Under the pieces are notes generated by a model that was not told the origin of the DNA, did not search any database, and saw only the letters and a list, made by a program, of their open reading frames with translations. 64,000 nucleotides of DNA. It comes from Polyangia bacterium (lineage in GTDB: Bacteria > Myxococcota_A > Polyangia > Nannocystales > Nannocystaceae). Positions 11,011 through 32,679 of the stretch are shown in pieces (position 1 is the first letter of the stretch; each line of letters begins with the position of its first letter). The stretch is taken from positions 47,225 to 111,224 of the forward strand of contig JAUIKS010000008.1 in the NCBI GenBank assembly GCA_030430565.1. The letters are read 5' to 3'. A program made the position numbers and the translations under genes.

Positions 11011-11032
11011 CCCGAGCTGACGAGGAGCCCGC

Positions 11033-12217
11033 GTGAACGCGCAACCAGACGACTTCGGTTTTGACGACGAGGCCCAGCTGCTGAAGCAGACCGCGCGCCG
11101 CCTGCTCGCCGAGCGGCTCCCGACCGCGGCGCTGCACCAGCTCGTGGCCGCGAGCTACGACCCGACGCGCGCGCGCGCGTGCGTCTGGGACCAGGCGCTG
11201 TGGCGCGAGCTCGTCGAGCTCGGGTGGACCGCCGTCGCGGTCCCGGCGGAGCTCGGCGGCTTCGGCATGGGGCTCGCCGCGGTCGCGGGGCTCGTCGAGG
11301 AGCTCGGCCGCGCCGCCCTGCCCTCGCCGCTGATCCCCACCCTGTGCGCGACCTACGTGCTGCGCGCGTGCGCCAGCGAGGGCGCCGATATGTTGCTCGC
11401 GCGGATCGCCGAGGGCGCCGCAGTCAGCCTGGCGACCACCGATCAGCACGGCTCGTGGGACGTCGAGGCCTGTGATGTCTCGGTCGTCGAGGGCGAGGGC
11501 GGCGAGGTAATCCTCGACGGCGTCGCGCACTACGTCCAGGACGCCATGAAGGCCGACGTGTTCCTCGTCAAGGCGAGCGCGCGGCGCGGCGGCGTCGGCC
11601 TGTACGTCGTCGAGCGCGACGCGCCCGGCGTCACCGTCGCGCCCGACGCGATCGTCGACCTGACCCGCGATCAGGCGCGCGTCGAGCTCCGCGGCGTCAA
11701 GCTCTCCGCCCGCGCGATCGCGGCCTCGCCCCGCGACGGCGCGCGCGCGCTGAGCTCGGCCGAGGCCGCGCTGCTGGTGCTCGTCACCGCCGACATGGTG
11801 GGCGCCGCCGAGTGGCAGCTGCAGACCACCGCCGAGTACGCGCGAACCCGCGTGCAGTTCGACCGCCCGCTCGGCTTCTTCCAGGCGGTCAAGCACCCGA
11901 TCGTCAACATGATGATCAAGATCGACGAGGCCCGCTCGCTGCTCTACGACGCGGCCTGCTCCTTTGACCATGAACCAGATCACGCCGAGCGACGCGCGCG
12001 CATGGCGAAGTCGGCGGCGAGCGACGCGGCGGCGTTCTGCTCGAGCCGCTCGGTGCAGCTGCACGGCGGCATCGGCTTCACCTGGGAGTGCTTCGTGCAC
12101 CTGTACTTCAAGCGCCAGAAGCACAACGAGGTGCTCTACGGCGACGGCGCGCACCAGCGAGCGAGGCTCGCGGAGCTGATGATCGGCCCGATCAGGGGGA
12201 CGCGCGCGTGCGCGTGA
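11033..12217 (+). CDS. Acyl-CoA dehydrogenase family protein (third of cluster)
   Basis: ACAD C-terminal domain pattern (QFDRPLGFFQAVKHPIVNMMIKIDEARSLL ... QLHGGIGFTWE). Confidence 0.8.
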   Translation: MNAQPDDFGFDDEAQLLKQTARRLLAERLPTAALHQLVAASYDPTRARACVWDQALWRELVELGWTAVAVPAELGGFGMGLAAVAGLVEELGRAALPSPLIPTLCATYVLRACASEGADMLLARIAEGAAVSLATTDQHGSWDVEACDVSVVEGEGGEVILDGVAHYVQDAMKADVFLVKASARRGGVGLYVVERDAPGVTVAPDAIVDLTRDQARVELRGVKLSARAIAASPRDGARALSSAEAALLVLVTADMVGAAEWQLQTTAEYARTRVQFDRPLGFFQAVKHPIVNMMIKIDEARSLLYDAACSFDHEPDHAERRARMAKSAASDAAAFCSSRSVQLHGGIGFTWECFVHLYFKRQKHNEVLYGDGAHQRARLAELMIGPIRGTRACA

Positions 12218-12242: not shown

Positions 12243-13352
12243 GTGGTCCCCGCGATGAAGATCGTCGCCGCCGTCGCGCGCCCGCGCGAGCCCTTCGCGC
12301 TCGCGGAGTGCGAGCTCGCGGAGCCCGGGCCGCGCGAGCTCCGAGTCAAGGTCGAGGCCTGCGGGCTGTGCCGCACCGACCTCTCGGCCAAGGACCACGA
12401 CTACGGGACGCCGCTGCCCGCGGTGCTCGGCCACGAGGGCGTGGGCCGCGTCGAGGCGCTCGGCGACGAGGTCGACGGCTTCGCGATCGGCCAACGCGTG
12501 CTCATGAGCTTCGGCGCGTGCGGACGCTGCGGCGAGTGCCGCCAGCGGATGCCCGCCTACTGCGCGCGGGCCATGGACTTCAACGTGTTCGGGCGCCGAC
12601 CGGACGGGACCGGACCGATCACCCTCGAGGGCCAGGCGATCACCGGGCACTTCTTCGGTCAGTCGTCCTTTGCGAGCCACGCGGTCGTCTCGACCACCAA
12701 CCTCGTGCCGCTCGCCGACGACCTTCCGCCGACCTTGATGTGCGGGCTCGCGTGCGGCGTCCAGACGGGCGTGGGCGCCGCGCTGAACGTGCTGCGCGTC
12801 GAGCCCCGTGATGTCCTCGTGGTCGCCGGCTGCGGCACCGTGGGCCTGTCCGCCGTGATGGGGGCCGTGATCGCCGGCTGCGCCTCGATCATCGCGATCG
12901 ACCGCAGCGACGCGCGGCTCGAGGTCGCGCGCTCGCTCGGGGCCACGCGCGTGATCAACAACCGCGGGCTCGACCGTGACGCGCTCAAGCGCCAGCTCCG
13001 GCAGCTGGGGCCCACGCGCGCCGTCGACAGCACCGGCGCTCCCGAGGTCATCGAGGCCGTGTTCGCGGCGCTGCGACGACGCGGCGTGCTCGCGCTGGCC
13101 GGCTTGAGCCGCGCGCGGACGCGGATCTCGATCGACGCCAACCGGCTGATGTCGAGCGGACGGGTCATCCGCGGGACCGTCGAGGGCGACGCCGACCCGC
13201 GCGTGTTCATCCCGCAGATGATCGCGTGGTACCGACGCGGCCAGCTGCCGCTGGAGGCGCTCGTGACGAGCTATCCCTTCGTGCAGATCAACCGCGCCGC
13301 GGAGGCGCTCGACCGGGGTCGCGCGATCAAGCCGGTGCTGTTCATGGACTGA
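12243..13352 (+). CDS. Zinc-dependent alcohol dehydrogenase (MDR superfamily)
   Basis: GLCRTDL, GHEGVGRVEALG, structural-zinc CGRCGECRQRMPAYC, GxGxxG Rossmann motif VAGCGTVGL. Confidence 0.85.
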   Translation: MVPAMKIVAAVARPREPFALAECELAEPGPRELRVKVEACGLCRTDLSAKDHDYGTPLPAVLGHEGVGRVEALGDEVDGFAIGQRVLMSFGACGRCGECRQRMPAYCARAMDFNVFGRRPDGTGPITLEGQAITGHFFGQSSFASHAVVSTTNLVPLADDLPPTLMCGLACGVQTGVGAALNVLRVEPRDVLVVAGCGTVGLSAVMGAVIAGCASIIAIDRSDARLEVARSLGATRVINNRGLDRDALKRQLRQLGPTRAVDSTGAPEVIEAVFAALRRRGVLALAGLSRARTRISIDANRLMSSGRVIRGTVEGDADPRVFIPQMIAWYRRGQLPLEALVTSYPFVQINRAAEALDRGRAIKPVLFMD

Positions 13353-13370
13353 GGACGAGGAGCCGAGACG

Positions 13371-13841
13371 ATGAACCCGACACAGCAGCTCAACGAATTC
13401 TTGGCGCGGAGCGAGGCCCGCGAGGCGGCGCTCTCCGTCGCCGCGCTCCACGAGTTCTTCGACCAGCTCGACGTCATCGAGACCTCGTTCCTCCACGGGG
13501 GCTGGACCGGCGCGGTGCTGCGCACTGGGCACCCCGGCGAGGGGCAGCTCGGCGCGATCCGCTGGGACGGCAAGCGCTTCCACGACGACAACGACGTCGA
13601 CCCGATCATCTCGCGGGACCCAAGCGGCGCGCGCGTGGCCAACCCGGTATTGGGCAAAGCCGCGCTGCGGATGGTCCGCTACCGCGGCGCGGTCACGGCG
13701 ACGATGATCTACGACAAGCACCCGATCTTCGATCACTTCCGCCGAGTCGACGACGACACGGCGCTCGGCGTCATGGACCGCAAGGGGGAGGCGGCGCCGC
13801 TGTTCTTCTGCCTGCGGCGGCTCCCCGGCGACCTTTCCTAG
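13371..13841 (+). CDS. DUF4334/GXWXG-domain protein
   Basis: GGWTG motif and the size and composition typical of GXWXG-DUF4334 proteins. Sits inside the beta-oxidation cluster. Confidence 0.55.
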   Translation: MNPTQQLNEFLARSEAREAALSVAALHEFFDQLDVIETSFLHGGWTGAVLRTGHPGEGQLGAIRWDGKRFHDDNDVDPIISRDPSGARVANPVLGKAALRMVRYRGAVTATMIYDKHPIFDHFRRVDDDTALGVMDRKGEAAPLFFCLRRLPGDLS

Positions 13842-13934
13842 GATCTGTTCACAAAGACATCTTTAAGAACCCGGCGCGCGCGCCGGGCCGCGAACGCTCG
13901 CGGACGACTCACAGCGATAGAGAGGCTCAACACG

Positions 13935-15146
13935 ATGCAACAGAGCGCGTTCATCTACGACGCGCTCCGCACCCCGCGTGGCAAGAACCGGGGCGGAGCG
14001 CTGCACGGCACCAAGCCAGTCGACCTCGTCGTCGGGCTGCTCGACTCGCTCGAGCCCCGCAACCAGGGCCTCGACCTGGCGCGCGTCGACGACATCGTGC
14101 TGGGCGTGGTCTCGCCGGTCGGCGAGCAGGGCGGCGACATCGCGCGCACGGCCGCGCTCGTCTCGGGCCTGCCGCAGAGCGTCCCCGGGGTGCAGATCAA
14201 CCGCTTCTGCGCCTCCGGGCTCGAGGCGGTCAACCTCGCCGCGGCGAAGGTCGCCTCGGGCTCCGACGAGCTCGTGATCGCCGGCGGCGTCGAGTCCATG
14301 TCGAGGATCCCGCTGGGCTCCGACGGCGGCGCCTACGTCCAGGACCCGACCACCGTCTACGACGCCTACTTCGTGCCCCAGGGGATCAGCGCCGATCTGG
14401 TCGCGACGATCGAGGGCTTCGGCCGCGGGGACGTCGACGCCTACGCGGTCGCCTCGCAGCAGCGCGCGGAGCGAGCCTGGACGAGCGGCTACTTCGCGCG
14501 CTCGGTCGTGCCGGTTAAAGACCTCAACGGCCTGACGATCCTCGACCACGACGAGCACCGGCGCCCGCGCTCGACGGTCGAGTCGCTCGCGGGGCTGCGC
14601 CCGGCCTTCGTCAAGATGGGCGAGCTCGGGGGCTTCGACGCCGTCGCGCTGCAGAAGTACCACCACGTCGAGCGGATCAACCACGTGCACACGGCCGCGA
14701 ACTCCTCGGGGATCGTCGACGGCGCCGCGCTGATGCTGCTGGGCAGCGAGCGCGTCGGCGCCGAGCTGGGGCTGCGGCCGCGCGCGCGCGTGGTCTCGAT
14801 GGCGGCGGTCGGCAGCGAGCCGACCATCATGCTCACCGGGCCGACGCCCGCGACCGAGAGAGTGCTCACGCGCGCGGGCCTGAAGCTCGCCGACATCGAC
14901 CTGTTCGAGGTCAACGAGGCCTTCGCGTCGGTGGTGCTCAAGTGGATGCGCGACCTGGATGTCCCGCTGGACAGGGTCAACGTCAACGGCGGCGCGATCG
15001 CCATGGGTCACCCGCTGGGCGCGACCGGGGCCATCATCCTCGGCACGCTGCTCGACGAGCTCGAGCGCCGAGGGCTGCGCTACGGGCTCGCCACGCTCTG
15101 CGTGGGCGCGGGCATGGGGATCGCCACCATCATCGAGCGCTTGTAG
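13935..15146 (+). CDS. fadA: Acetyl-CoA C-acyltransferase (3-ketoacyl-CoA thiolase)
   Basis: Thiolase motifs [22 protein letters not shown]-terminal [17 protein letters not shown] and CVGAGMG. Confidence 0.9.
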
Positions 15147-20517: not shown

Positions 20518-22086
20518 TCACGCCCCTGGGTCAGCGCGCCGGAGCGCGCCCTTAACGACCTTGCCGCCGGCGTTACGCGGGAGCGCCTCCATCACGATCA
20601 TCGCCTTGGGCTGCTTGAAGCGGGCGAGGTGATCGCCGAGATAGCTCCGCAGCGCGTCGAGCTCGAGCGTCGAGCCCGGCGCCAGCACGACCGCCGCGAC
20701 CGGGATCTCGCCCCACGTGGGATCCGGACGCCCGTAGACCGCGGCGTCGAGGATCTCGGGGTGGGACGCGAGCGCGTTCTCGACCTCGGCGCAGTAGATG
20801 TTCTCGCCGCCCGAGATGATCATGTCTTTCTTGCGGTCGACGACCCAGACGTAGCCCTCGTCGTCCTGCCGCACGAGGTCGCCGGAGTGAAACCACCCGC
20901 CCGCGAAGGCGGCGGCGGTCTCCTCGGGCTTGCGCCAATAACCCTGCATCAGCGTCGGCCCGCGGTAGACGATCTCGCCGACCTGTCCCCGGGGGACGTC
21001 GCGCATGTCGTCGTCGACGACGCGGACCTGGATGGTCGGGATCGGGAGGCCGACCGAGCCGAGCTTGCGCAGCGAGTCCTCGCCCCGGAGCACGCAGGTG
21101 ATCGGCGACATCTCGGTCTGCCCGAACACCGCGATGTTGAGCGCGCTCGGGAAGGTCTCCTCCATCTGTCGGAGCAGCGTCTCGGAGGCGGGCGCCGCCC
21201 CCCAGCTGATGACCCGCAGGCCCCGCCCCTTCTCGCGGGCCTGCGGGTGGGCGCAGATCGCCTTCCACTGGGCCGGGACGTTGAAGACGATCGTCGCGCC
21301 CTCGCGCTCGTAGGCGTCGAGCAGCGCGCCGGCGTCGAAGCCCCCGAGCGGGTGGATGACCGTCGTGATCCCCAGCAGGAAGTTGGGCGCGATCGAGCCC
21401 AGCCCGGCGATGTGGAACAGCGGCGCGGTCATGAAGCCGATGTCGTCCTCCTTGAAGATCTCCATCGCGCGGATGCAGGTCAGCGCCTGCCCGACCATGT
21501 TGACGTGGTCGAGCATCGCGCCCTTGGGCCTGCCGGTCGTGCCCGAGGTGTACATGATGAGCGCGGGGGTGTCCTCGGGGACATCCGGCGCCACGAAGCC
21601 CCCGGGGTCCTCGGCGACGAGCGCGTCGAAGGCCTCCGCCCCGTCCGGCGCGCGCCCGAGGACGATCACCCGCTTGACGCGATCGGTGCTGCGCGCGACC
21701 GCGGCGACCAGCGGGACCAGGGGCTCGTCGACGATCAGCACGTCGGCGTCGGCGTCGTCGACGATGTAGGCGATCTCCGGCGGCGCGAGCCGGACGTTGA
21801 TGGGCACGGCCATCGCCCCCAGCGTGTTGACGCCCATCACCGCCTCGATCACCTCGGTGCGGTTGAGGACGAGCATGAGCACGCGATCGCCGAGCTTCAC
21901 GCCGCGCCGCTGCAGCGCGGCCGCGAACGCGGTGACGCGATCGTGGGCCTGCCTCCAGGTCGTCGCGGCGCCGCGGTAGCGGAACGCGACGGCGTCGGGT
22001 CGCATCTCGGCGTGCCCGGCGATGTGGTTCATCCAGTGGTTGCGGCGCTGGGCGGGGGGGATGACTCGCGGCTCGGTGATGGTCAT
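20518..22086 (-). CDS. fadD: Long-chain-fatty-acid--CoA ligase (AMP-dependent synthetase)
   Basis: YTSGTTGRPKGAML AMP-binding motif, TEMSPIT, C-terminal GEIPVAAVV and PRNAGGKVVK. Confidence 0.9.
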   Translation of the reverse strand: MTITEPRVIPPAQRRNHWMNHIAGHAEMRPDAVAFRYRGAATTWRQAHDRVTAFAAALQRRGVKLGDRVLMLVLNRTEVIEAVMGVNTLGAMAVPINVRLAPPEIAYIVDDADADVLIVDEPLVPLVAAVARSTDRVKRVIVLGRAPDGAEAFDALVAEDPGGFVAPDVPEDTPALIMYTSGTTGRPKGAMLDHVNMVGQALTCIRAMEIFKEDDIGFMTAPLFHIAGLGSIAPNFLLGITTVIHPLGGFDAGALLDAYEREGATIVFNVPAQWKAICAHPQAREKGRGLRVISWGAAPASETLLRQMEETFPSALNIAVFGQTEMSPITCVLRGEDSLRKLGSVGLPIPTIQVRVVDDDMRDVPRGQVGEIVYRGPTLMQGYWRKPEETAAAFAGGWFHSGDLVRQDDEGYVWVVDRKKDMIISGGENIYCAEVENALASHPEILDAAVYGRPDPTWGEIPVAAVVLAPGSTLELDALRSYLGDHLARFKQPKAMIVMEALPRNAGGKVVKGALRRADPGA

Positions 22087-22122
22087 GGGCTCGTGCTCCG
22101 TGCCTGGGGGGTCAGGGGCTGA

Positions 22123-24372
22123 CTACAGCGTCTTGAGGTACTCGATGATCGCCGCGCGCTCACCGTCGGTGAGCACCGAGGTGAACTCGTGACCCGAGTT
22201 GCCCTGCCCGAACATGTGCGTGTTGTAGATCTTGCGGTTCTCCATCTGCTGGGGCGTCAAGACCGGCGGCGCGAGGATATTCCAGACGGCGATGAAGTTG
22301 GTGTACAGCTGCGCGAGCAAGATCTGCACCAGCGGGTCGTTCTCGTTGGAGGGGTTGCAGTTGATGTAGGGGCTCACGCCGTTGCCGAGCTCGCACTCGA
22401 TGTCGTTGTACCGCCAGCCGACCCGCTCGGTGTCGTAGGCGCGCACGAGGTCGGTGTCGTGGCCCATGATCACGTCTTGACCGGGGGGCTTGGGCGTCGA
22501 GTAGCGCTTCCAGATGTCCTTGCGATCCTCGTGCTTGAGCACCTCCCACAGATTGGGCACGGAGCCGTTGTGGAAGTAGGGCGCGGTCGCCCACACGCCG
22601 AACAGCGGCGGCGCGAGGTAGCCCGGCTCGCGATCGCCGGCGAGGTCGGGGCGGTTCTGCGGGCCGCAGTCGTTCTCGGTCCCGTAGGTCTGCGGGTAGC
22701 CGAAGAAGCTCGACGCGCCGGCCTGCTGCACCGCCTCGTTGTTGGTCTCGAGGCGCACCGGGTCGGTGTTGATGATGTCGATCGGCGTGATGTAGCTGGC
22801 GATCCCCTCCATGCGCGGCGACGCGAGGAACGCGGGGTCGTTGAAGAACGCGGGCGCGTAGGCGCCGTGGCACGAGGCGCACGAGCCGTTGCCGGCCTCG
22901 GGGTCGGGGACCGGGTTGTCGCGCGCCGGGGCCCACAGGTCGAGGGTGTGGAACAGGATCGCGCCCGACTCCGCGAGCGTCTCGTCGACCGCGTAGGGAT
23001 AGGGCGGCGCCTTGAGGACGGTCGCCCAGTCGTTGAGCGGCGGGCCGTGCTCGCGCATCCAGTCCAGCGCCATCTCGCTGATCGGCCCGGCGAGGCCGCC
23101 GAACAGCCCGAAGAACGGGGTGAAGAACACCATGTCGACGCGCGGCGAGTCCATGGGGAACACGCCGTCGACGAACTTGAGCGCGCGGTGCCCCATGTTC
23201 CACCAGGCCGGCGTGTCCATGCCGGCCGTCGAGCCCGAGCTGATGAGCCCGAGCAGCGTCTCGAAGTCGTAGCCGTAGCCGGCCTCGGGGAAGAAGAACG
23301 CGAGGTTGATGTCGCTGGCGTTGTTGACCCCGCGGGTCTTGTTGAGGTTGAGCAGCGTCGCCGCCGAGGCGAGGTAGCCGAGCGGCAGCATGTCGCGCAA
23401 AAACAGGTGGTGATCGGCGAGCGGGCTGCCGCTCCCGAGCATCAGGCCCGGCGCGTCGTCCCCCGTGATCGCGCCGCTGTGGCAGCCGTGGCAGGTGATG
23501 CCGATGGTGCCGGTCCAGGTCCCGTCGGGCTCGCGCAGCTGCGTGAAGAAGTACGGGAGCGTGCCCGAGCCGCCGTTGGTCTGGTTGGGGTCCTCGCCGA
23601 TCAGCGGGTACGGGTTGGGCTCGGGGCCGAAGGCCGAGCCGACCCGCTCGGCCACGAGCTCGTCGAAGTTCTCCGGGCGCGTGAGCATGCCCCAGCTGAG
23701 GTACATCAGGTTGTACGAGCTCGCCGGGAAGGTGGCGGCGCCGAAGCCCGCCTCGATCTCCTGGTGGCTCGTCCCCGAGAACATGGCCCCTGCGCCAGGT
23801 CCGCTCGGCTGGATCAGCTCGCCGCCCCGCTCGACGCGCTCGCGCAGCTCGCCGCAGGTCTCGGCCGGGCCGTCCTCGCCGACCGCCTCGGGGTTGACGT
23901 GGCAGTCCTTCCAGAACGCGTTGAAGGCGACCGCGCGGCCGTCCGAGACGCCGGGCTGGACCAGCGAGCGCGGGTCGGTGGGCACCGGCGCGTCGTCCGG
24001 GCGGCACAGGCAGTAGTCCCACACCGCCCAGCCGCCGCGGCTGCTCCACAACAAGGCCTCCGGGTCAGGCTCCTCGATGCTCCCGTACTCCGGGTGCTCG
24101 CCGTCGCCGCAGTAGAACGGCTCTTCGTCACCGTCCGTGACGGCGCCCGTGCTCGTGCCGGAGTCGGAGTCGGAGTCAGACTCCGCGCCGTCGTCGGTCG
24201 CGGCCGCGTCGGAGCCGGCGCTGTCGGGGCCGGCGGTGGTGCCGACGTCGCCGCCGACCTCGGAGGTCGCGGGCGCGTCGGTCTCGCCGCCTTCGTCGTC
24301 GCCGCAGGCCACGGGGCCGAGGCTGAGCAGCGCGAGGAACGGGACGACGGGAGCAGTGCGGAGCCGAGTCAT
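22123..24372 (-). CDS. Lipoprotein di-haem c-type cytochrome, CCP/MauG/RoxA-superfamily-like (paralog 2, larger, with a Cys-rich N-terminal extension)
   Basis: Start MTRLRTAPVVPFLALLSLGPVACG (complement of 24370-24372). Haem motifs ITCHGCHSG and CASCHGAY. Conserved C-terminal block APPLFGVWATAPYFHNGSVPNLWEVL ... IIEYLKTL shared with paralogs 1 and 3. Extra N-terminal region of about 200 aa with several Cys residues. Confidence 0.7.
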   Translation of the reverse strand: MTRLRTAPVVPFLALLSLGPVACGDDEGGETDAPATSEVGGDVGTTAGPDSAGSDAAATDDGAESDSDSDSGTSTGAVTDGDEEPFYCGDGEHPEYGSIEEPDPEALLWSSRGGWAVWDYCLCRPDDAPVPTDPRSLVQPGVSDGRAVAFNAFWKDCHVNPEAVGEDGPAETCGELRERVERGGELIQPSGPGAGAMFSGTSHQEIEAGFGAATFPASSYNLMYLSWGMLTRPENFDELVAERVGSAFGPEPNPYPLIGEDPNQTNGGSGTLPYFFTQLREPDGTWTGTIGITCHGCHSGAITGDDAPGLMLGSGSPLADHHLFLRDMLPLGYLASAATLLNLNKTRGVNNASDINLAFFFPEAGYGYDFETLLGLISSGSTAGMDTPAWWNMGHRALKFVDGVFPMDSPRVDMVFFTPFFGLFGGLAGPISEMALDWMREHGPPLNDWATVLKAPPYPYAVDETLAESGAILFHTLDLWAPARDNPVPDPEAGNGSCASCHGAYAPAFFNDPAFLASPRMEGIASYITPIDIINTDPVRLETNNEAVQQAGASSFFGYPQTYGTENDCGPQNRPDLAGDREPGYLAPPLFGVWATAPYFHNGSVPNLWEVLKHEDRKDIWKRYSTPKPPGQDVIMGHDTDLVRAYDTERVGWRYNDIECELGNGVSPYINCNPSNENDPLVQILLAQLYTNFIAVWNILAPPVLTPQQMENRKIYNTHMFGQGNSGHEFTSVLTDGERAAIIEYLKTL

Positions 24373-24400
24373 GGGGATTCTCGCTTTCGTTGCCGAAAAA

Positions 24401-24415
24401 CTTGTTGGCAACAAG
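24401..24415. promoter_or_regulatory. Palindrome CTTGTTG-G-CAACAAG in the divergent promoter region between the di-haem gene and the DUF2236 gene. A one-mismatch copy sits at 24530-24544 (CTTGTTGGCAACTAG).
   Basis: Read directly in the sequence; reverse complement of the 8581-8595 motif. Confidence 0.5.
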
Positions 24416-24623
24416 CAAATACACAGGAAGCGGACAGCCGGTCAAGTGACGCGCTCGAACACCGTACGATGACCGTTTGGTCGGTTTTGGGGGAAATCGA
24501 GCGTCGCTCCGCGCGGCACGGGCAACTTACTTGTTGGCAACTAGCAAATTTAAACGCATCCTCGACAGCATCAAGCGACATGCCGAGCCCCACCACGAGA
24601 CGAACGCTCCTGTCCCCCAGAAC

Positions 24624-25577
24624 ATGCGCGAAAGCGAGACGCTCGCCGGGTCGCGCGGCGGGAGCACCCGAGCATTGAGACCGACGATGCAGCCTCACGA
24701 TTCGCGCGACCAGCCCCGCGCCGCCGCCTCGTCATGGCCGAAGGTCGACTACCTCAACCCGCCCGGGGCGCGCTCGCTCTACGCCCCCGACTCGATCTCG
24801 TGGCACGTGTTTAAAAACCCGGTCGCGCTGTTCGTCGGCGGGGTCGCGGCCGTGCTGCTCGAGCTCGGCGAGCCGCGTGTGCGCACAGGCGTCTGGGAGC
24901 ACTCGAGCTTCCGCAGCGATCCGATCGCGCGGATGAAGCGAACCGGGCACGTTACCCACGTCTGCGCGTACGCCCCGCGCGAGGTCGCGGAGCAGGTCGT
25001 GGCCCGCGTCGTGAAGATGCACGCGCGCGTGCGCGGGGAGACGCCCGCGGGGACGCGCTACCACGCGAACGATCCCGAGCTCTTGAATTGGGTGCAGGCG
25101 ACGGTCGACTTCGGTTTCATGGAGGCCTACGCGGCCTACTGCCACCCGCTCTCCGACGCCCAGCGCGATCGCTTCTACGCGGAGTCGATCGCCGCAGCCG
25201 CGCTGTTCGGAGCGACCGGCGCGCCAACCACGCTGGACGAGCAGCGCGAGCACTTCGCGGCGATGCGCTCGGCGCTCGAGCCCCACCCGATCGTGCTCGA
25301 GTTCCTCGAGATCATCACGCGAACGCCCGCGGTCCCGCGCCCCCTCGCGGGTCTGCAAGCGATCATGATCCGCGCCGGCGTCGACCTGCTCCCCGATTGG
25401 GTCATCGCGCGCCTCGAGCTCCAGGCGTTCCGAATCACGCGCCGCGAGCGGCTGCTGCTGATGGCGGCGGGCCGGCTGTTCGACCGAATCCCGCTCCCGG
25501 GGAGCCCTCCGTCCCTCGCCTCGAGGCGCCTCGGGCTTCCGAGCCACTACCTCTACTGGGGCCGCGGGCGGCTGTGA
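24624..25577 (+). CDS. DUF2236-family oxygenase (MpaB / Lcp-type haem-dependent oxygenase family). Alternative start 24687.
   Basis: ISWHVFKNPVALFVGGVAAVLLELGEPRV and the downstream pattern are typical of DUF2236 (PF09995). No signal peptide. ORF-track start 24477 was rejected because the protein family begins further in. Confidence 0.65.
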   Translation: MRESETLAGSRGGSTRALRPTMQPHDSRDQPRAAASSWPKVDYLNPPGARSLYAPDSISWHVFKNPVALFVGGVAAVLLELGEPRVRTGVWEHSSFRSDPIARMKRTGHVTHVCAYAPREVAEQVVARVVKMHARVRGETPAGTRYHANDPELLNWVQATVDFGFMEAYAAYCHPLSDAQRDRFYAESIAAAALFGATGAPTTLDEQREHFAAMRSALEPHPIVLEFLEIITRTPAVPRPLAGLQAIMIRAGVDLLPDWVIARLELQAFRITRRERLLLMAAGRLFDRIPLPGSPPSLASRRLGLPSHYLYWGRGRL

Positions 25578-25685
25578 CGGCGGGGCTCGCGGGCCTCGCG
25601 CTCGTCGTCCTCCGCAGCAGGGTCGTGGTGACGATACGCCCTAGGACGCGATACATGGCTCATCGGCCATGACGCGCTCGCCCCG

Positions 25686-27422
25686 TCACGGGAGCAGCCG
25701 GGCGAGGAAGGTGCGCGCGAGCTCGCCATCCGCGACGAGCGCGGGCCCGGCGATCTCCATGGTCCCGTAGTAGTCACCGGCCCAGAGCAGCGCGACCGGG
25801 TCGCTCTCGCCGTCGAAGGCGAGCTGACGGCCGCTCTCAGGCTGCTTGTTGCTGCTGCCGCCGAAGCGCTCGCTCCACAGGTGCGCGCCGGTCGCGAGCT
25901 CATAGCGCGCGAGGCAGGCGTCGTCGGGCCCGCTGATCACGAGCGGGCCGCCGCCGAGGTCGAGGCCTTCGAAGCACGGACCGGAGACGAACACGTGCCC
26001 GTGCTCGGCGTCGACGGCGACGCCGCGGGCGATGTCGTCGACCGCGGGCGCGCCGAAGCGCTGCGCCCAGCTCACGTCGCCGGTCGTCGCGTTCATGTTG
26101 ACCAGGAAGATGTCGTGGTTCACGTCCGATCCGCTGTCGAGCTCGAGCGCCGAGATCGTCGACGTGAAGTCGCCCACCACGACCATCTCGTCGTCACCGT
26201 CATAGGCGAGCCCGCGGACCGATGTCTCCCCGTCGCTGACGAAGGAGTCGCTCCAGCTGAACGCGCCGTCGGCCACGGCGAGGCGCGCGACGAAGCTGTC
26301 ACGCGGCCCGGCGCTGGTGTGCTCGTCGCTGCCCAGCACGATCGAGTTCGCGAAGGTGCCCGCGATCAGGACCGAGCCAGGGCTGCCGTTGATCACCGTG
26401 TTGACGGCCTCGTAGCCCCCCAGCCCGCCGAGCTGCTGCGCCCAGTGAACTTGGAGGCTCGAGTCGAGGCCGGCGATGAACCCGGTCGCCTGCCCGAAGG
26501 CGAAGCCCTCGCTCTCGAGCGGCCCGACGCCGAGGTCGAGCTGCCCCTGGTAGCCGCCGCCGAGGATGAGGCGATCGAAGCTCGCGTCGTAGGCGAGCCC
26601 GGACCCGAACTGCGTGCCGTTCGTCGGGAAGGCGACGACCTTCCCGCACTGCCCGTTGTTCGCGTCGAGCTGCGCGACGAACAGGTCCGGGTCGGTCGAC
26701 TCACCCCCGAGGTCCACCTCGCACAGAAACAACGGGCCAGTGTAGTCGCCGGTGATAAACAGCGAGCCGGACTCGGTGACGATCAGGTCGCGCAGCGTCT
26801 CGTGACCGCCGCCCTCTTTGCCGTCGCCTAGGTCGCTGATCCACTGGAGCGATCCGTCAGGCGCGAACTTCATGACGTGCATCTTGAAGATCGTGGAGGA
26901 CCCCTCGACGTCATGCTGGGCGTGCGAGATCCCGAGCTTGTAGATGCCGCCGAGGTAGATGTTGCCCGCGGCGTCGACCACCAGCCCCTCGTTGAGGATC
27001 TCGCCGTCGCCGAAGCCGACGGACCAGTTCGGCCCGGGCGCGCAGTCGAACTGGTCACACGCCCCCGGCTCGCCCGTGCTGCTGCCGCTGCTCGAGTCGG
27101 GAGCGCCGGTGCTCGTCGAGGCGCCTTCGGTCGCGTCGGCGGTCGTCGCCGCGCTCGTCTCCGCCGCGCCCGTCGAGCCGCTGAGCTCCCCGCTCGAGGA
27201 CACGGTCGTCATCGCGTCGGTCTGCGCGTTTGGATCGCTGCACGCTCCGTCGACGCAGCGCTGCCCCGCGTCGCACTCGCTGTCCGCGGTGCACGGCAGG
27301 CCCTGCGTCCCCGGCTGCTTCCAACACCCAGCGGGCCCGGGGAGCGCGAGCGCGAGCGCGAGCCAGCCCGCGAGCGAGCGAGCGCGCGAGCGCGGCCGCT
27401 GGTCGTCTCGATCAGACACCAC
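25686..27422 (-). CDS. Secreted/lipoprotein beta-propeller repeat protein (SBBP-like), Cys-rich N-terminal module
   Basis: Signal peptide ending PGPAGC. A C-rich segment (CTADSECDAGQRCVDGACSD), an S/T/G linker, then repeated G..Y.G/D..G strands typical of myxobacterial beta-propeller proteins. Confidence 0.55.
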   Translation of the reverse strand: MVSDRDDQRPRSRARSLAGWLALALALPGPAGCWKQPGTQGLPCTADSECDAGQRCVDGACSDPNAQTDAMTTVSSSGELSGSTGAAETSAATTADATEGASTSTGAPDSSSGSSTGEPGACDQFDCAPGPNWSVGFGDGEILNEGLVVDAAGNIYLGGIYKLGISHAQHDVEGSSTIFKMHVMKFAPDGSLQWISDLGDGKEGGGHETLRDLIVTESGSLFITGDYTGPLFLCEVDLGGESTDPDLFVAQLDANNGQCGKVVAFPTNGTQFGSGLAYDASFDRLILGGGYQGQLDLGVGPLESEGFAFGQATGFIAGLDSSLQVHWAQQLGGLGGYEAVNTVINGSPGSVLIAGTFANSIVLGSDEHTSAGPRDSFVARLAVADGAFSWSDSFVSDGETSVRGLAYDGDDEMVVVGDFTSTISALELDSGSDVNHDIFLVNMNATTGDVSWAQRFGAPAVDDIARGVAVDAEHGHVFVSGPCFEGLDLGGGPLVISGPDDACLARYELATGAHLWSERFGGSSNKQPESGRQLAFDGESDPVALLWAGDYYGTMEIAGPALVADGELARTFLARLLP

Positions 27423-27485
27423 CCCCCACCCTACTGCACTCCGCGAGGATCGAAACCGGCCGCGCGGCTCGCTCCTAGCGGGTGC

Positions 27486-28385
27486 TTAGAACTCGCCGCG
27501 CAGCAGGAGGCCCGCGAAGCCGGGCGCGAGCGCGGGCGCGAGCGCGAGGCCGTCCGCGCGCTGCCGCGACTTGCCGACGATGATCAGCGCCGCGCCTGTG
27601 GCGAGCAACGCCCCGCCGAGGACGCCGCCGGCGATCGCCAGGGAGTTGCCCCGCTCTCCGCGGTTGATCGCGGCCGTCCGCTCGGCGCCGTTGCTCGCCC
27701 CTAGGAACTCGTCGACCGCGTTGTCGCCGATCACGAGCCCGCCGGCCATGAGGCCGAAGCCGACGAGCGAGGCGCCCGCGACCACGGCTCCGCCGATCAC
27801 CAAGCCCGCGCCCGGCTTGCGCGGGCTCGTCGGCTCAGGCGGCGACGACGGCTCGACCGGCGTGGCCGGCTCGACCGGCGCTGGCGCTGGATCCTCCTCG
27901 ACCTCCGAGACCTCGGCGAGCAGCTTGTCGACGACCGCGAGCAGCTCGTCCGCAGCGACGCGCTCCTCCTCGCTGAACGCCTCGCGCTCGCGGTACTGCA
28001 GGAGCAGCGCGCGCGCTTGGCCGAGATGCTTGGGGTCGTCGTTGATCTCGTAGGCCTTGATGTGCGCGCCGGCGAGGTTGAATTGCAGGGTCGCCGAGAC
28101 GACCGCGCGGAACTGCGTATCCTCGATCCGGATCGCCTCCTCGTACGCGCGCGTGAAGCTCTCGATCGCGCCCTCGTAGTCCGCGGTCTCGAACTGCGCC
28201 TGGCCGCGCTCAAACAGCGCCTTCGCCCGGGCCTCGGCGTTGTCGCGCGCGGCCGAGCTCGCCGCGCTCGCGCCGGCGCGACTCGAGCTGAGCGCGACGC
28301 CGAGGAGCGCGACCCACAGCGCCAGACCGCCGCGTCGGCGAGACCGGCGCGCGTTCCTCGTGGGCGCAGAGAGAGGACGCTGCAT
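27486..28385 (-). CDS. Secreted TPR-like protein with a Gly/Ala-rich C-terminal hydrophobic segment
   Basis: Start MQRPLSAPTRNARRSRRRGGLALWVALLGVALSSS (signal peptide). TPR-like helices (ADYEGAIESFTRAYEEA). C-terminal GLVIGGAVVAGASLVGFGLMAGGLVIG resembles a membrane anchor. 28427 is an alternative start. Confidence 0.5.
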   Translation of the reverse strand: MQRPLSAPTRNARRSRRRGGLALWVALLGVALSSSRAGASAASSAARDNAEARAKALFERGQAQFETADYEGAIESFTRAYEEAIRIEDTQFRAVVSATLQFNLAGAHIKAYEINDDPKHLGQARALLLQYREREAFSEEERVAADELLAVVDKLLAEVSEVEEDPAPAPVEPATPVEPSSPPEPTSPRKPGAGLVIGGAVVAGASLVGFGLMAGGLVIGDNAVDEFLGASNGAERTAAINRGERGNSLAIAGGVLGGALLATGAALIIVGKSRQRADGLALAPALAPGFAGLLLRGEF

Positions 28386-28688
28386 CCGCGACACTATACA
28401 AGCAAGCCGCGCAATAACGACGTCCACGTTCCCGCGCCGCGCCGCGCCTTGCTACTGTCGTGGGCCGCAGCTCGCGCGCGAGCGGACGCGCCCTGTCTGT
28501 TCATGGAGGAACGCATGACGCCTAGACACCGACCCCTCTGGCCCGCCCTCGCAGCCCGTGGCGAACGTCCACGCGCCGGCACACGTGATCCCTCCGCCGC
28601 CGACTTCGTTGGCGAAACGAGCAGTACGCCCGAAACAACTTCGTTTCACCGCCTCGCCCGCGACGAGAACTCCGGCGCGAGCCGACAC

Positions 28689-30299
28689 GTGGACGTTCGC
28701 CGCGGGCTGCTCGCCCTGATCGCCGCCAGCGCTGCGATCGCGCTCCCGGCCTGCGGCGACGCAGTCGACACCGAGACGACCGCCGATCCCAGCGACGCCG
28801 GCACGACCGGCGACGCGCCGGGGGACTCCGCCGACGGCGCGACCACGAGCGCGGGCGCGAGCGCGACCGGGGCGACGACGACCAGCGCGAGCGAGACGAG
28901 TGAGACCAGCGGGACCAGCGAGGGCATGGAGGACACCTTCGGCCCGGGCCCGTGGGACCACGGCTATCCGATCCCGCACGAGGATCAGGTCCCCGGCGAT
29001 CCCGAGGCGGGCTACGAGGCGCTGCTGACCCGCGGCTACGTCAGCTGTGGTGTCCCCTACGCCATGTTCCAGCTGGCGAAGGGCCTGCTCGGTCCCTACG
29101 CGGACGGGCCCGCGCTGCCGGGCCGCGAGGGCAAAAACGCGCTCGTCCCCTTCAACTGGACGGTCCACAGCGAGACCAAGAGCGGGGCCGAGGTCGCCGC
29201 GCTCAACTGCCTCACCTGCCACGCGGGCTACGTCAACGGCGAGCTGATGGTCGGGGCCGGGCGCGCCGACGGTGACTTCACGGCCGACATGGGCGCGCTC
29301 GTCGGCGCGATCCCGATCCCCGATCTCCCGATCCTCGGGCTCAGCGAGCTCGCGGCGATGCAGAGCCGCTACGAGGCGCTCGGGCCCTACACCCAGATGC
29401 ACACCATCGGCTCCAACCCCGCCGACATGATCGCGGTGGTGCTCGCGGCCCACCGCGACCCCGTGACGCTCAATTGGAGCGACGAGCCGCTCGAGCCGAT
29501 CGCGGCCGAGCCGATCCCCATCGACACGCCGCCGTGGTGGCGCTCGAGCAAGAAGAGCAGCCTGTTCCACAACGGCATGGCCCGCGGCGACAAGCGCGGG
29601 ACGATGATGTTCGCCTCGTCGCTGTGCACCGACTCGGTCGCCGAGGCCGAGCTGATCATGTCGTACTTCAACGACGTCAACGCGTACATCCAGTCCATCG
29701 AGCCGCCGCCCTACCCCTTCACGATCGACGCCGCGCTCGCCGACGAGGGCGAGCTGCTGTTCATCGACAGCTGCGCCGGCTGCCACGGCACCTACGCCGA
29801 CGATCCCGCGGACGACTGGTACCCCAACCTGATCATCCCGACCGAGATCATCGGCACCGATCCGTCGCTCGCGGACTACGGCGTCGACGACGTCGCGCAC
29901 ATGGTCGACTGGTACAACAGCTCGTTCTACGGCGCGTACACGCGGCTCGAGCCGGGCGACCCGGTCGCCGGCTACACGGCGCCGCCGCTCGACGGCGTGT
30001 GGGCGACGGCGCCCTTCTTTCACAACGGCTCCGTGCCGACAATCGAGGGCGTGCTCAACAGCGCGGCCCGCCCGCCCTACTGGAAGCGCGTCGACTACGA
30101 CAGCAGCAACCTCGACCAAGACGCGCTCGGCTGGCCCTACGTCGAGACCCCCTACGGTCAGCAGGACGCGCCCGAGGACGAGAAGATCCACGTCTTCGAC
30201 ACGACCCTGCACGGCCACAAGAACGCAGGCCACCCGTTCGGAGACGCGCTCTCGCCGGGCGAGCGCCGGGCGGTCATCGAGTATCTCAAGACGCTGTAG
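28689..30299 (+). CDS. Lipoprotein di-haem c-type cytochrome, CCP/MauG/RoxA-superfamily-like (paralog 3; closest to paralog 1)
   Basis: GTG start gives (M)DVRRGLLALIAASAAIALPACGD (lipobox LPAC), then an S/T/G/D linker. NCLTCHAG and CAGCHGTY; PPLDGVWATAPFFHNGSVPTIEGVL; VIEYLKTL. The ORF-track 5' extension back to 28017 overlaps the opposite-strand TPR gene and was rejected. ATG at 28503 is an alternative start but would place the signal peptide about 60 aa inside the protein. Confidence 0.65.
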   Translation: MDVRRGLLALIAASAAIALPACGDAVDTETTADPSDAGTTGDAPGDSADGATTSAGASATGATTTSASETSETSGTSEGMEDTFGPGPWDHGYPIPHEDQVPGDPEAGYEALLTRGYVSCGVPYAMFQLAKGLLGPYADGPALPGREGKNALVPFNWTVHSETKSGAEVAALNCLTCHAGYVNGELMVGAGRADGDFTADMGALVGAIPIPDLPILGLSELAAMQSRYEALGPYTQMHTIGSNPADMIAVVLAAHRDPVTLNWSDEPLEPIAAEPIPIDTPPWWRSSKKSSLFHNGMARGDKRGTMMFASSLCTDSVAEAELIMSYFNDVNAYIQSIEPPPYPFTIDAALADEGELLFIDSCAGCHGTYADDPADDWYPNLIIPTEIIGTDPSLADYGVDDVAHMVDWYNSSFYGAYTRLEPGDPVAGYTAPPLDGVWATAPFFHNGSVPTIEGVLNSAARPPYWKRVDYDSSNLDQDALGWPYVETPYGQQDAPEDEKIHVFDTTLHGHKNAGHPFGDALSPGERRAVIEYLKTL

Positions 30300-30407
30300 T
30301 CACGCGCGAGCCGTCGCGCGCGAACGCGCGAGCGCGGCCGACGTGACCCGCGGCTTACTGTCAAGGTCCATGTCCGACCGCAACAATTCGGAGGCCTGTG
30401 GAGTCTC

Positions 30408-32591
30408 TCAGGAAAAGCGGCTCCGAATACCAGGCATCACTGGTAAAATCCACACGGGAGATTCACCATGTGTAGCGATTGTTCGTAGCTCTTTGCGCTC
30501 CTCTTCGGCCAGCATATCTGCACACCGCCTAGCAACATTCTCCGCTTTCCGCCAACCTTTTGTGCTCGATCTCCGGTAGACTCTTTCGAGCGACACTGCA
30601 TCCTTCTCAGAGTATAGTAATATATCAAAAGAACAGGCCAGAAAGTACTCGCGCGATCGAAGGATCTCGTGGATGTAGTACCGTCCTGAAGATCCTATCC
30701 GAACTCGATCTTCGCTGGCCCACGGCGCTTCGAGTCGGTCGTAGGAAACGATGAGGCGCTCTCGCCCTAGAAAATTGACTGTACGCTCGACGACCCCGGG
30801 CTCATAACCGATTTGCTTCATGGTATCGACAATTGCACTGACACTTGCATCAGTCATGCAACTGGCATTCTGGGATGCCCAGTCTAAATATTGGAGCACA
30901 CGAACGGAGGCAAAGCGTGCCTCCATCGTATTCTTGGCACCGCGCAGGAGGTTAACAATCGGTGCTCGAGCTTCGTTGTAAACCCAGTTCTCGCCTTTCA
31001 TAACGGACCGAAGAAAGCTATCGAGCGTAATTGGGGAAGACCAGCCTCTCCCCTGAGACGCATCGTAGTCTCGGAACAACTTGTTGATATCAGTATGTGC
31101 ACTTGTTGAGTACCTCTCAACCAGCTTCAGAGCCTCTCTTATATTCCCACCCCCAAGAGCCGAGATGCACTCTCTTGCAGGCGGCCGATTCAGAACTGTC
31201 CCCGCAAGAATCTCTACAAAGTCTAATACACGCTCGTGATCAAAGCCGCGCATATCTCTGACAAACTGCGCTCCGAGGTGCTTGTCGCCGCGAAGCTCAT
31301 TGCGAATATATTCGACTCTTGCGGTAGCGACCTCCGCGAACGGAGGAGGATCTATCTGGAGAACCGTTGGTAACCGAACGTCTAGAAACCCCCCTGTCAC
31401 TCCACGTTCAAAAGTTGTTCCGCGCATGGAAATGGCTATGCTCGCATCAGTTTTGTGCGCTAAGTCGGCGGCGAGTTGATAAATCACCTTCTCAAACGCC
31501 ACTGTTCCTTGGTCTACGTTGTCGAGCACCACAATCGCTGAGCCGACCTCGCGTGCGACAAAGCCCAGCCATGCCTTGAGGTGCTCTTTGCGACGATCGA
31601 GGTGTTTCAGGATAATCTCGTCCTCGTCCTGCGGCGAGGGAGGCGGGCTATCAGGAGACCTAGCCGAACGGAAGCGTCGCAATTCTCCAGCAAACACTTT
31701 TCGCAGTACGGAGTTCTGAAAAGGAGACATCTTTGAATAATGAGTCTCGGCTTGATCAAGAAGATCTTTACAGATGGCGTCGATTAGACGATCATGATCG
31801 AAATTACTGGAGTGAAGCTGTGTATTATTAATAAGATCGACGTGCAAATATATTGCCTTATGCTCTTCTGGGCGACGTTCAACTTGTAACTTAAGCATTG
31901 CGAAGAAGGTTGATTTTCCACTCCCGGGTGGTCCGACCACCAGTGACACCCCTTTGCGAGGTTCGCCGTGGAATATTGCGTCAACAGGATCAACAGACGT
32001 TCGGTCTACTGGGTCTACTTCATCACCGTCCCGCAGCGCGCTTGGAAGCGTACTTGCGCTGAAGGGCTCAAGTTCCGCGAGATGCGTGTCCGTAGCGCTT
32101 GATCTGACATAGCATGCCCGCAGCATATCCTGGTGGCGTTCGTCCGTGAGATCATGAAAGCAGAGGCGCATCAATCGACGAATAGGACGAGTCAAGTAGT
32201 TCTTAGAACTTGAAGTGTCGACTTTCGTCATTGACAAAAGCTGGTGAAGACTTCTTGCGTAACTTGGCGTGCGGGACTTTCGCTCTGCGACTGCCAATTG
32301 TTGAGTCGGTACAGAAGTCCATAGCAACGCAACAGCTTCAATGTCCTCACGCCGGCGCGGCCGCTCTCCTACAAGGGCGGCGAAAAACTCGTGGTCGACG
32401 AGGCCGTGCCGTTTGAGCATGGCGATCGCGTTCTCGATCAAGACGGCCAGTGATGCAGGTGTACTCGGCAAACTAGAGAGAAGCTCGTCTGCTTGAGGAA
32501 ATCGTCCGAGAAAGCGGCGGAACTCCCTGTCGATGAAGAGCGACTGGAGAAGTGCTTCAAGGGCTCGCTCCTTGCTAGTCGGCAAGTTCAT
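30408..32591 (-). CDS. P-loop NTPase with NACHT/STAND-like motifs and an N-terminal alpha-helical effector-associated (EAD/Death-like) domain. Candidate anti-phage defence protein carried on a low-GC island.
   Basis: 727 aa. Walker A GPPGSGKST. Walker B-like IVVLDNVDQG (hhhhDxhD, NACHT-type). The N-terminal ~95 aa (ERALEALLQSLFIDREFRRFLGRFPQ ... LAVLIENAIAMLKRHGLVDHEFFAALVGERP) has the helical pattern of EAD/Death-like adaptor domains. Long helical C-terminal region. Gene body GC is about 40-45% against about 70% in the flanks. Confidence 0.75.
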   Translation of the reverse strand: MNLPTSKERALEALLQSLFIDREFRRFLGRFPQADELLSSLPSTPASLAVLIENAIAMLKRHGLVDHEFFAALVGERPRRREDIEAVALLWTSVPTQQLAVAERKSRTPSYARSLHQLLSMTKVDTSSSKNYLTRPIRRLMRLCFHDLTDERHQDMLRACYVRSSATDTHLAELEPFSASTLPSALRDGDEVDPVDRTSVDPVDAIFHGEPRKGVSLVVGPPGSGKSTFFAMLKLQVERRPEEHKAIYLHVDLINNTQLHSSNFDHDRLIDAICKDLLDQAETHYSKMSPFQNSVLRKVFAGELRRFRSARSPDSPPPSPQDEDEIILKHLDRRKEHLKAWLGFVAREVGSAIVVLDNVDQGTVAFEKVIYQLAADLAHKTDASIAISMRGTTFERGVTGGFLDVRLPTVLQIDPPPFAEVATARVEYIRNELRGDKHLGAQFVRDMRGFDHERVLDFVEILAGTVLNRPPARECISALGGGNIREALKLVERYSTSAHTDINKLFRDYDASQGRGWSSPITLDSFLRSVMKGENWVYNEARAPIVNLLRGAKNTMEARFASVRVLQYLDWASQNASCMTDASVSAIVDTMKQIGYEPGVVERTVNFLGRERLIVSYDRLEAPWASEDRVRIGSSGRYYIHEILRSREYFLACSFDILLYSEKDAVSLERVYRRSSTKGWRKAENVARRCADMLAEEERKELRTIATHGESPVWILPVMPGIRSRFS

Positions 32592-32679
32592 TGCTGACGA
32601 CTATGTTAGGTGCTTTCGCCATGGAGGACCAGTCCTCGCTAGGCAAGGGCTCGTCGCGCGGCCGCGGGGCGCCGTGTCG

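Follow-up and report, generated by a model that had tools for sequence, protein, structure and literature searches.

A horizontally acquired, nuclease-less relative of a mobile nuclease–ATPase family as a candidate immune sensor in a Polyangia bacterium

What does a single foreign gene do in a run of metabolic genes? The question is raised by a 64,000-nucleotide stretch of DNA from a Polyangia bacterium of the Nannocystaceae (GenBank assembly GCA_030430565.1, contig JAUIKS010000008.1, positions 47,225 to 111,224), which is referred to here as the window. Its open reading frame (ORF) 30408-32591, on the minus strand, is intact, starts with ATG and encodes 727 aa plus a stop codon. In an initial annotation the product was described as a NACHT/STAND-like P-loop NTPase (STAND, signal transduction ATPase with numerous domains) with an N-terminal effector-associated domain (EAD) or Death-like domain, and was proposed as an AVAST/bNACHT-like anti-phage protein. 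The reading put forward here, to which we give an even chance of being right, is that the gene is a horizontally acquired, nuclease-less derivative of a mobile family, an ATP switch with a Death-like output, and a candidate effector-less immune sensor.

By its composition, ORF 30408-32591 is a horizontally acquired single gene, and it is the sole compositionally foreign gene of the window. The GC content is ~0.52 across ~30300-32600 versus ~0.70 on either side, with sharp bounds. GC at third codon positions (GC3) is 0.53 versus 0.80–0.97 in the flanking genes, and no other window gene is so low. DNA similarity to L002, the only close homologue, is confined to 30431-32631. The GC and GC3 contrast and the one-gene similarity thus bear out the horizontal acquisition that had been proposed. 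The foreign-composition island of the initial annotation has a real GC depression, but it comprises exactly one gene among metabolic genes and is not a defence island. The intergenic gaps on the two sides measure 108 and 88 bp. No flanking repeats, integrase or adjacent tRNA were found at the borders of the gene, no restriction–modification (RM) or other defence genes lie beside it at the window locus, and a promoter and terminator scan upstream of the ATG at 32591 gave nothing usable. Matches of 8-9 bp around the gene were considered as boundaries of a mobile unit and were rejected as GC-rich chance matches.

The origin of the gene is best seen in its relatives. A word-indexed search of 5.8 billion proteins returned nine of them: the identical P0001, P0002 with 84% identity, five with 35-39% identity (P0003-P0007; window residues ~100-727, E 1e-104 to 1e-120), and two KAP-annotated proteins with 26-27% identity. 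In a genome scan, close relatives were found in Myxococcota only (Sorangium cellulosum So ce56, a Myxococcaceae metagenome-assembled genome (MAG) and Polyangiaceae MAGs), a distribution which, with the GC of 70%, points to a myxobacterial source. A profile search of 1.84 billion representatives gave 2225 matches at E<=1e-3 and 633 at E<=1e-30; counted as clusters at 50% identity, the family has at least 633 clusters. Nearly all family matches in this search are 800-1000 aa long and aligned over their full length. The relatives carry an N-terminal domain of ~200 aa with the motifs E-A-x-T-R, LGW, D-Y, (V)E-A-K, Q-A-x-x-Y and T-N-G-x-Q-W (alignments A1 and A2), which are present in 64-68 of 70 aligned members. 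Pfam HSDR_N or HSDR_N_2 matches 13 of 47 members, and two plasmid members are named in RefSeq as 'type I restriction enzyme HsdR N-terminal domain-containing protein' and 'type I restriction endonuclease'. To judge from the motifs, this domain is an HSDR_N-like domain of the PD-(D/E)xK restriction-endonuclease type, and it is the best-conserved part of the family. The usual architecture, as read from the alignments, is an HSDR_N-like nuclease followed by a middle region, a Cdc6/ORC-STAND ATPase with an insert, a lid, a winged helix-turn-helix (wHTH) and a helical bundle. The window protein shows homology across the middle region, ATPase, lid, wHTH and bundle, and both it and P0002 are without the nuclease domain. 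The middle region, insert, wHTH and bundle are candidates for specificity because they are the least conserved parts among distant members. No named PADLOC or NCBIfam model exists for the nuclease–ATPase family.

Some variation within the family is worth recording. Two proteins of ~606 aa (L020 7602-9425 and L021 5280-7100) match only window residues ~77-233, covering the middle region and P-loop, and the middle region may occur also in this shorter, different architecture. Members of 960-1000 aa (P0020-22, P0026-30, P0035, P0040 and others) extend ~150 aa beyond the norm, and a few members have weak PADLOC matches to the DrmMI, type IIG restriction endonuclease-methyltransferase and MTase_II models. 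This hints that some branches have additional modules, at the C-terminus or of a methyltransferase-related kind.

The loss of the nuclease can be followed in an intermediate, L017 (metagenome contig Ga0075163_10016515, ~0.62 GC, 925-3747), which was found by a whole-protein metagenome scan. Its ORF of 940 aa is arranged in the order N-domain, Ala/Pro-rich linker, HSDR_N-like nuclease and core. The core is 70% identical to window residues 101-719, and the nuclease contains the motifs EARTR...VLGW...WLDYHL...VVESKN...QALDYC...ATNGPQW. The N-domains, at window residues 8-91 and L017 residues 7-88, are 32% identical (E 1e-9), and window residues 101-115 correspond to L017 residues 315-329. Compared with the arrangement in L017, ~215 aa appear to have been lost from the window protein, comprising the linker and the nuclease. 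On these alignments, the most parsimonious history starts from nuclease plus core; a small L017-type subclade then gained the N-domain, and the common ancestor of the window protein and P0002 lost linker and nuclease by deletion. It had been suggested that the N-terminal domain may itself be the effector. A simple effector swap is not what is seen, since the domain coexists with a cis nuclease in L017, and the N-domain is better described as an add-on.

Loss of the catalytic effector domain of the family raises the possibility of a decaying remnant, in which the deletion inactivated a former single-protein restriction-like gene. The gene also stands alone among unrelated metabolic genes, and among billions of proteins the nuclease-less form is known from two sequences only, P0002 being the other one. 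Such decay is nevertheless hard to reconcile with an intact ORF that keeps all the invariant ATPase residues, and all ten family-invariant residues are in fact present (G220, G223, G225, K226, D357, N358, D360, R425, R485 and Y649). The two nuclease-less copies have diverged to a dS of ~0.9, and their dN/dS values are 0.076 (core), 0.057 (NTPase), 0.084 (C-terminus) and 0.24 (N-domain). Low dN/dS at this dS indicates that selection continued long after the nuclease deletion. Judged by these rates, the nuclease-less gene is maintained by purifying selection, and we consider a decaying remnant very improbable.

What kind of ATPase has been retained? A full-length AlphaFold2 (AF2) model was built with a 70-sequence alignment and reached a predicted local distance difference test score (pLDDT) of 83.7 and a predicted template modelling score (pTM) of 0.80, residues 110-727 being mostly above 85-95. 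The P-loop NTPase of the initial annotation, with Walker A GPPGSGKST and VVLDNVDQG, is confirmed at residues 220-228 and 354-362. The closest structural match of the model is Cdc6 with a score of 12.9, followed by TnsC (12.3, 11.7), MuB (11.6), ORC1 (11.6), ORC4 (11.4), ORC5 (11.3), archaeal Orc/Cdc6 (11.2-11.5) and archaeal ATPase_2 (10.4-10.8). Lower scores were obtained for BrxC (10.2), NLRP4F (10.1), RdrA and WRR4A (9.8), NOD2 and Avs3 (9.7), and the Apaf-1-related Dark and CED-4 (9.6). Residues 561-633 match MarR/PadR-type winged helices at ~10-11. Because of these matches and of the layout (core with insert, lid, wHTH, bundle), placement of the window ATPase in the Cdc6/ORC-STAND assemblage of P-loop switch ATPases is supported at the level of the model, in which the fold appears slightly nearer to initiator and transposition ATPases than to NLRs. 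STAND proteins have themselves been placed within the Cdc6/Orc clade by the Aravind group (PMC8195603, PMC10853773).

The details of the layout are consistent with this placement. A helical insert after strand 2 of the AAA+ core is shared with Cdc6/Orc1, TnsC, MuB, BrxC/DUF499 and SspC, and the conserved lid Arg (G-N-x-R) with the Cdc6/ORC-clade ATPases. The wHTH comes after the lid, as it does directly in BrxC and ORC/Cdc6 (PMC12839542); in the window protein a linker separates the lid (416-515) from the winged helix (561-633). In its position, the insert at 253-350 would correspond to the initiator-specific/HEH insert that Cdc6/ORC-clade ATPases have (PMC12839542). The lid motif GGGNIREAL, for which the family consensus is S-x-G-N-x-R-x-A-L, is by comparison with the 'GDxR' lids of Cdc6 and RFC a putative sensor-2-like motif. 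The maximum Kyte-Doolittle mean over 19 residues is 1.39 for the protein, and there is no transmembrane segment, the insert included. The resemblance to Cdc6/ORC-clade ATPases has its limits: there is no significant sequence match, the Walker B is D-N-x-D (N358 invariant) and not D-E-x-D, without the AAA+ catalytic Glu, the insert is ~98 aa, and the N-terminus bears a nuclease in the family and a Death-like domain in the window gene. The window gene is also a single-gene unit, which sets it apart from the BREX, Ssp and transposon operons.

The ATPase evidence also bears on the initial model, in which an AVAST/bNACHT-type STAND receptor would sense a phage protein through a ~330-aa C-terminal helical or repeat region and recruit a distant effector through the EAD. 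The NACHT Walker B pattern is D-G-x-D-E, which the D-N-V-D-Q of the window protein resembles. Sub-threshold Pfam matches to nSTAND_NTPase5 in 20 and to NACHT in 13 of 47 relatives point the same way, as does the Death-like character of the N-terminal domain. The order of P-loop core, helical lid and winged-helix module is that of STAND proteins. In the window protein itself, however, NACHT stays below the Pfam cut-off (17.2 bits versus 26.7, residues 215-285 only), as does AAA_16 (30.2 bits versus 32.6), AAA_22 being a further sub-threshold match, and neither the protein nor the 47 relatives have a PADLOC match to Avs or bNACHT/NLR models. In place of the supposed repeat sensor, the C-terminal ~310 aa are modelled as lid, linker, wHTH and a short helical bundle, with no Pfam repeat family; only the ~95-aa bundle follows the wHTH, without TPR, LRR or WD40 repeats. 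A C-terminal repeat sensor is reportedly typical of the STAND class, though not universal (as Leipe et al. 2004 are said to have put it). The bundle is far below the sensors of defence STANDs, which are typically at least 400 aa (PMC13581612). Moreover, the best structural matches are Cdc6/ORC, TnsC and MuB, and the usual output of the family is a cis nuclease. Taken together these points make the AVAST/bNACHT model quite unlikely, and ORF 30408-32591 should not carry a NACHT or AVAST annotation.

Other assignments were tried as well. For the window protein, NCBIfam gave no match and PADLOC only a weak mad8 match, and searches of PDB sequences, with the single sequence and with a profile, gave generic P-loop matches only; MAD2 matches were dismissed as chance (E>0.08 over 20 residues). 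A KAP protein with transmembrane segments was rejected, as there is no KAP match in the window protein and no such segment; the KAP_NTPase model matches 9 of 47 distant relatives. A housekeeping AAA+ chaperone was likewise rejected: Clp, FtsH and MoxR give no match, and the nearest folds are those of proteins of the initiator clade and of STAND proteins.

The N-terminal domain is the remaining candidate for an output. The absence of a nuclease, protease or TIR domain in cis, noted earlier from the translation, holds in Pfam, PADLOC and NCBIfam scans of the window protein, in which none was detectable. The all-helical N-terminus of ~95 aa, also noted then, is reproduced by two independent AF2 runs, both of which place six helices between residues 6 and 91. 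When the domain was modelled alone (window protein and P0002), pLDDT rose to 81.4 and pTM was 0.70, with helix boundaries unchanged. The model shows the six-helix Greek-key arrangement of the Death-like superfamily (DD, DED, CARD, PYD, bDLD). The top 34 and ~55 of the 60 best structural matches are Death folds, and the matches include ASC, CED-3, MAVS, MyD88 and BCL10. On this model, residues 6-91 probably adopt a Death-like fold. The domain is also small, non-enzymatic, mostly helical and terminal on a core NTPase, as EADs are. Of the EAD/Death-like assignment, the fold thus stands on the model, but membership in a Pfam EAD or Death family does not: the isolated domain matched 0 families at E<=10, for the window protein and P0002 alike, in a Pfam that includes several nSTAND NTPase families (PF20703, PF20720, PF25199). 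A hidden Markov model (HMM) of the three N-domains matched no other protein among 156 fetched family members, and their profile found no Death-fold match among PDB sequences. In the word-indexed search the N-domain had no match at E<=10, a weak negative, as the 103-aa query missed even its parent P0001.

From these elements a mechanism may be proposed. The window protein would be an ATP-controlled switch, like Cdc6/ORC, TnsC, MuB and STAND NTPases, in which a trigger engaged by the wHTH and the variable helical regions would lead to oligomerization. The trigger would most plausibly be foreign or unusual DNA or a DNA-bound factor, because the protein has a wHTH and resembles Cdc6/ORC, TnsC and MuB, each of which forms its assemblies on DNA. 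In canonical members the oligomer would license the N-terminal nuclease, with a restriction-like effect or abortive infection as the output. In the window protein the Death-like domain would be the sole output module left; clustered on the oligomer, it might recruit or activate a partner by homotypic interaction, on the principle of EADs and CARDs (PMC7159879, PMC10312443). The partner might be an unlinked effector with a Death-like domain or a nuclease-bearing paralogue. What the analysis shows is the architecture, the folds at the level of models, the loss of the nuclease, purifying selection and the carriage of relatives on mobile elements; the defence role, the DNA trigger and Death-like signalling are inferred. 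A regulatory or auto-inhibitory role of the N-domain is equally conceivable, because the C-terminal CARD of a Lysobacter NLR-like protein is auto-repressive (PMC10312443) and the L017 domain coexists with a cis nuclease.

A stronger version of this mechanism is a DNA-sensing, Death-domain-signalling platform, in which the Cdc6/ORC-like ATPase would assemble on DNA that invades the cell or on intermediates of replication or packaging, and the clustered Death-fold domain would activate an unlinked Death-fold effector. We regard it as quite unlikely. If true, its architecture would be that of a relay of the inflammasome or PIDDosome kind, with an origin-recognition-type ATPase in place of the repeat-bearing NLR, and with L017 as an evolutionary intermediate that has both outputs.

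Several observations weigh against the immune-sensor reading. In the full-length model the N-domain has a pLDDT of only 45-61, yet it forms six helices; the Death-fold call comes from an AF2 model of two sequences, with pLDDT above 80 in 2 of 5 models. It is further weakened by Foldseek, which found nothing significant for the N-domain in the PDB, PYD and DD appearing only among matches with E>2. No homologues of the N-domain were found in the metagenome scan or in the viral-contig scan with N-domain alignments. The initial annotation had the N-domain recruit an effector in trans, and a second copy or candidate partner was sought with tblastn; none was found in the 64-kb window or in the fetched loci. 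No named defence system was recognized among the window protein and its 47 relatives (Pfam, PADLOC, NCBIfam), and the PADLOC matches of the relatives are weak and at the level of the P-loop (mad8 in 13 of 47, best 1.6e-8, and PDC-M54B). We infer the DNA trigger from the wHTH and the Cdc6/TnsC/MuB resemblance and from nothing else. The neighbours in the window are metabolic (DUF4386, three RoxA-like cytochrome c proteins, an Lcp/MpaB-type oxygenase, hydrolases, dehydrogenases). Finally, several homologue loci show mobile-element genes only, and the counts of defence neighbours are raw counts over the inspected loci.

Those counts come from the genomic context of the relatives (Table 1). RM or other defence genes adjoin 3 of ~15 inspected loci; elsewhere the neighbours are mostly transposases and recombinases, plasmid accessory regions and prophages. 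No family member was found among deposited phage genomes. At 6 loci or more, the family gene has a higher AT content than the DNA around it. GC3 of the So ce56 member is 0.54 versus ~0.9, and that of the viral-contig members 0.36-0.39 versus ~0.7. Low GC across hosts could possibly result from recent transfer, from selection for AT-rich sequence or from xenogeneic silencing. From its gene neighbourhoods, the family appears to be mobile accessory cargo whose association with restriction and defence genes is clear but not universal.

This context also bears on a further explanation, in which the window protein would be a modulator and not a sensor. Assembled together with nuclease-bearing paralogues or with other Death-like proteins, it would act as a regulator, a decoy or a dominant-negative antidote; alternatively, it would work for a mobile element, as TnsC and MuB do, in the choice of targets or in maintenance. 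Both of these rank among the top structural matches, transposases, recombinases, plasmid rep/par and prophage early genes are frequent neighbours, and the coexistence of the Death-like domain with a cis nuclease in L017 fits a regulatory role. At the window locus, however, no transposase or second family member adjoins the gene, which moves as a single ORF, and the near-invariant PD-(D/E)xK motifs and RM-adjacent loci of the family fit a restriction-like conflict better than transposition. A modulator or mobile-element function is in our view unlikely.

Table 1. Domain features of the 727-aa protein (window coordinates) and gene neighbourhoods of relatives.
Feature or locus	Coordinates	Strand	Description
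N-terminal six-helix domain	32319..32576	-	residues 6-91; helices 6-18, 21-28, 32-40, 48-61, 67-76, 78-91; predicted Death-fold-like
Junction	32280..32318	-	residues 92-104; ~215 aa (Ala/Pro-rich linker and HSDR_N-like nuclease) absent relative to L017
Family-specific helical middle region	31977..32279	-	residues 105-205; NYL 131-133, M141, C144-F145, C160-Y161-V162
AAA+/P-loop core	31347..31976	-	residues 206-415; strands b1 214-220, b2 246-252, b3 351-357, b4 384-390, b5 409-412
Walker A GPPGSGKST	31908..31934	-	residues 220-228; G220, G223, G225, K226 invariant in 70 members
Soluble helical insert between b2 and b3	31542..31835	-	residues 253-350; ~98 aa
Walker B region VVLDNVDQG	31506..31532	-	residues 354-362; D357, N358, D360 invariant family-wide
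AAA+ lid, helical bundle	31047..31346	-	residues 416-515; invariant R425; GGGNIREAL 480-488, invariant R485
Winged helix-turn-helix	30693..30911	-	residues 561-633; three helices and b-hairpin wing 614-616, 629-632
C-terminal helical bundle	30411..30692	-	residues 634-727; ~95 aa; invariant Y649; not a repeat array
L011 (Polyangiaceae MAG)			directly downstream of HsdM-HsdS-RhuM-HsdR, co-directional
L003 (P0004 homologue)			one side: MmeI-type RM enzyme and Schlafen/AlbA_2; other side: amidoligase with GGACT, reverse transcriptase, methyltransferase
Shewanella plasmid			gene WP_088587038, a canonical member; adjoins type II RM pair and IS30
Phaeobacter plasmid			adjoins RelE/ParE toxin–antitoxin pair and recombinase
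Pantoea plasmid			adjoins integrase, recombinase and ISNCY element
Desulfocapsa plasmid			between rep and par genes
So ce56 (L008, NC_010162)	9401-11989		one-gene low-GC patch, adjoins IS66
P0002 locus			adjoins mutator-type transposase
Two IMG/VR viral contigs			distant members; scanned neighbours include S24 repressor, Cro/CII/Rha-type regulators, RecT, replication protein O

How does the protein compare with known defence systems? Avs2-4 type and bNACHT proteins have a large TPR-like sensor and 1500-2000 aa, whereas the family has a wHTH with a small bundle and 730-1000 aa; there is no HMM match to them, the nuclease of the family is HSDR_N-like, and the window gene has none. A small six-helix terminal domain on a conflict switch ATPase is likewise found in bDLD1-3 (Kaur et al. 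2020/2021) and in the CARD-like domains of gasdermin, CARD-NLR and LypABC systems. The window N-domain has no sequence or profile similarity to these, and the hallmark of EAD/bDLD and CARD systems, a neighbouring gene that fuses another copy of the domain to an effector such as a protease, is missing beside the window gene. Their STAND partner bears repeats, whereas the window ATPase is Cdc6/ORC-like with a wHTH, and L017 differs further in that the domain precedes a cis nuclease. In ATP/GTP-dependent restriction enzymes (McrBC-type, type IV), as may be the case for canonical family members, a PD-(D/E)xK nuclease is governed by an oligomerizing AAA+ NTPase, and both are mobile and RM-adjacent. 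The family belongs to a different AAA+ clade, however, is a single polypeptide and has no McrB or McrC similarity in PADLOC or Pfam, and the window protein is without the nuclease.

Conflict ATPases that carry Death-like or CARD-like domains have reportedly been described from bacteria before (Kaur et al. 2020 and 2021, Wein et al., LypABC). What is new here is the combination of a Death-like domain with a Cdc6/ORC-like wHTH ATPase, the single-gene format and the documented loss of a nuclease. The series of nuclease plus core, Death-like domain plus nuclease plus core (L017), and Death-like domain plus core (window) offers a probe of what a Death fold does on a switch ATPase, and its three steps might help to tell apart roles as output adaptor, oligomerization aid and auto-inhibitor. 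If the Death-like domain recruits a partner, bacterial Death-fold signalling would reach beyond repeat-bearing NLR-like sensors to a Cdc6/ORC-type wHTH ATPase. The nuclease–ATPase–wHTH family of at least 633 clusters is itself a candidate new single-gene restriction-like or abortive-infection system, and is arguably a more valuable lead than ORF 30408-32591.

Further observations concern the loci of relatives and the rest of the window. Family members richer in AT than their surroundings were seen at L008, L009 (883-3417), L017 (925-3747), L018, L022 and L023, and in high-GC myxobacterial genomes they stand out as one-gene low-GC patches. At L003, the region directly downstream of the P0004 homologue (12677-14406) encodes Amidoligase_2, GGACT and AH_C/GGACT proteins (gamma-glutamyl cyclotransferase-like), and beyond this set lies the gene of a 669-aa reverse transcriptase with a 436-aa partner. 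The L003 region looks like a dense island of little-characterized conflict genes. In the window, positions 20518-30299 contain three RoxA-like di-haem cytochrome c genes (22123-24414 on the minus strand, ~28518-30299 on the plus strand, and another further on, by L001), and near them are an Lcp/MpaB-type oxygenase (24477-25577), a beta-propeller protein (25686-27422) and a TPR protein (27486-28427). This set looks like a polyisoprene (rubber)-type oxygenase cluster, with the foreign gene inserted at the edge. Adjacent tRNA-Arg(TCT) and tRNA-Pro(TGG) genes at 54777-54953 are flanked by two mildly GC-depressed stretches (0.64-0.65) at 53000-54000 and 56000-57000, and this site may be another integration hotspot, unrelated to ORF 30408-32591.

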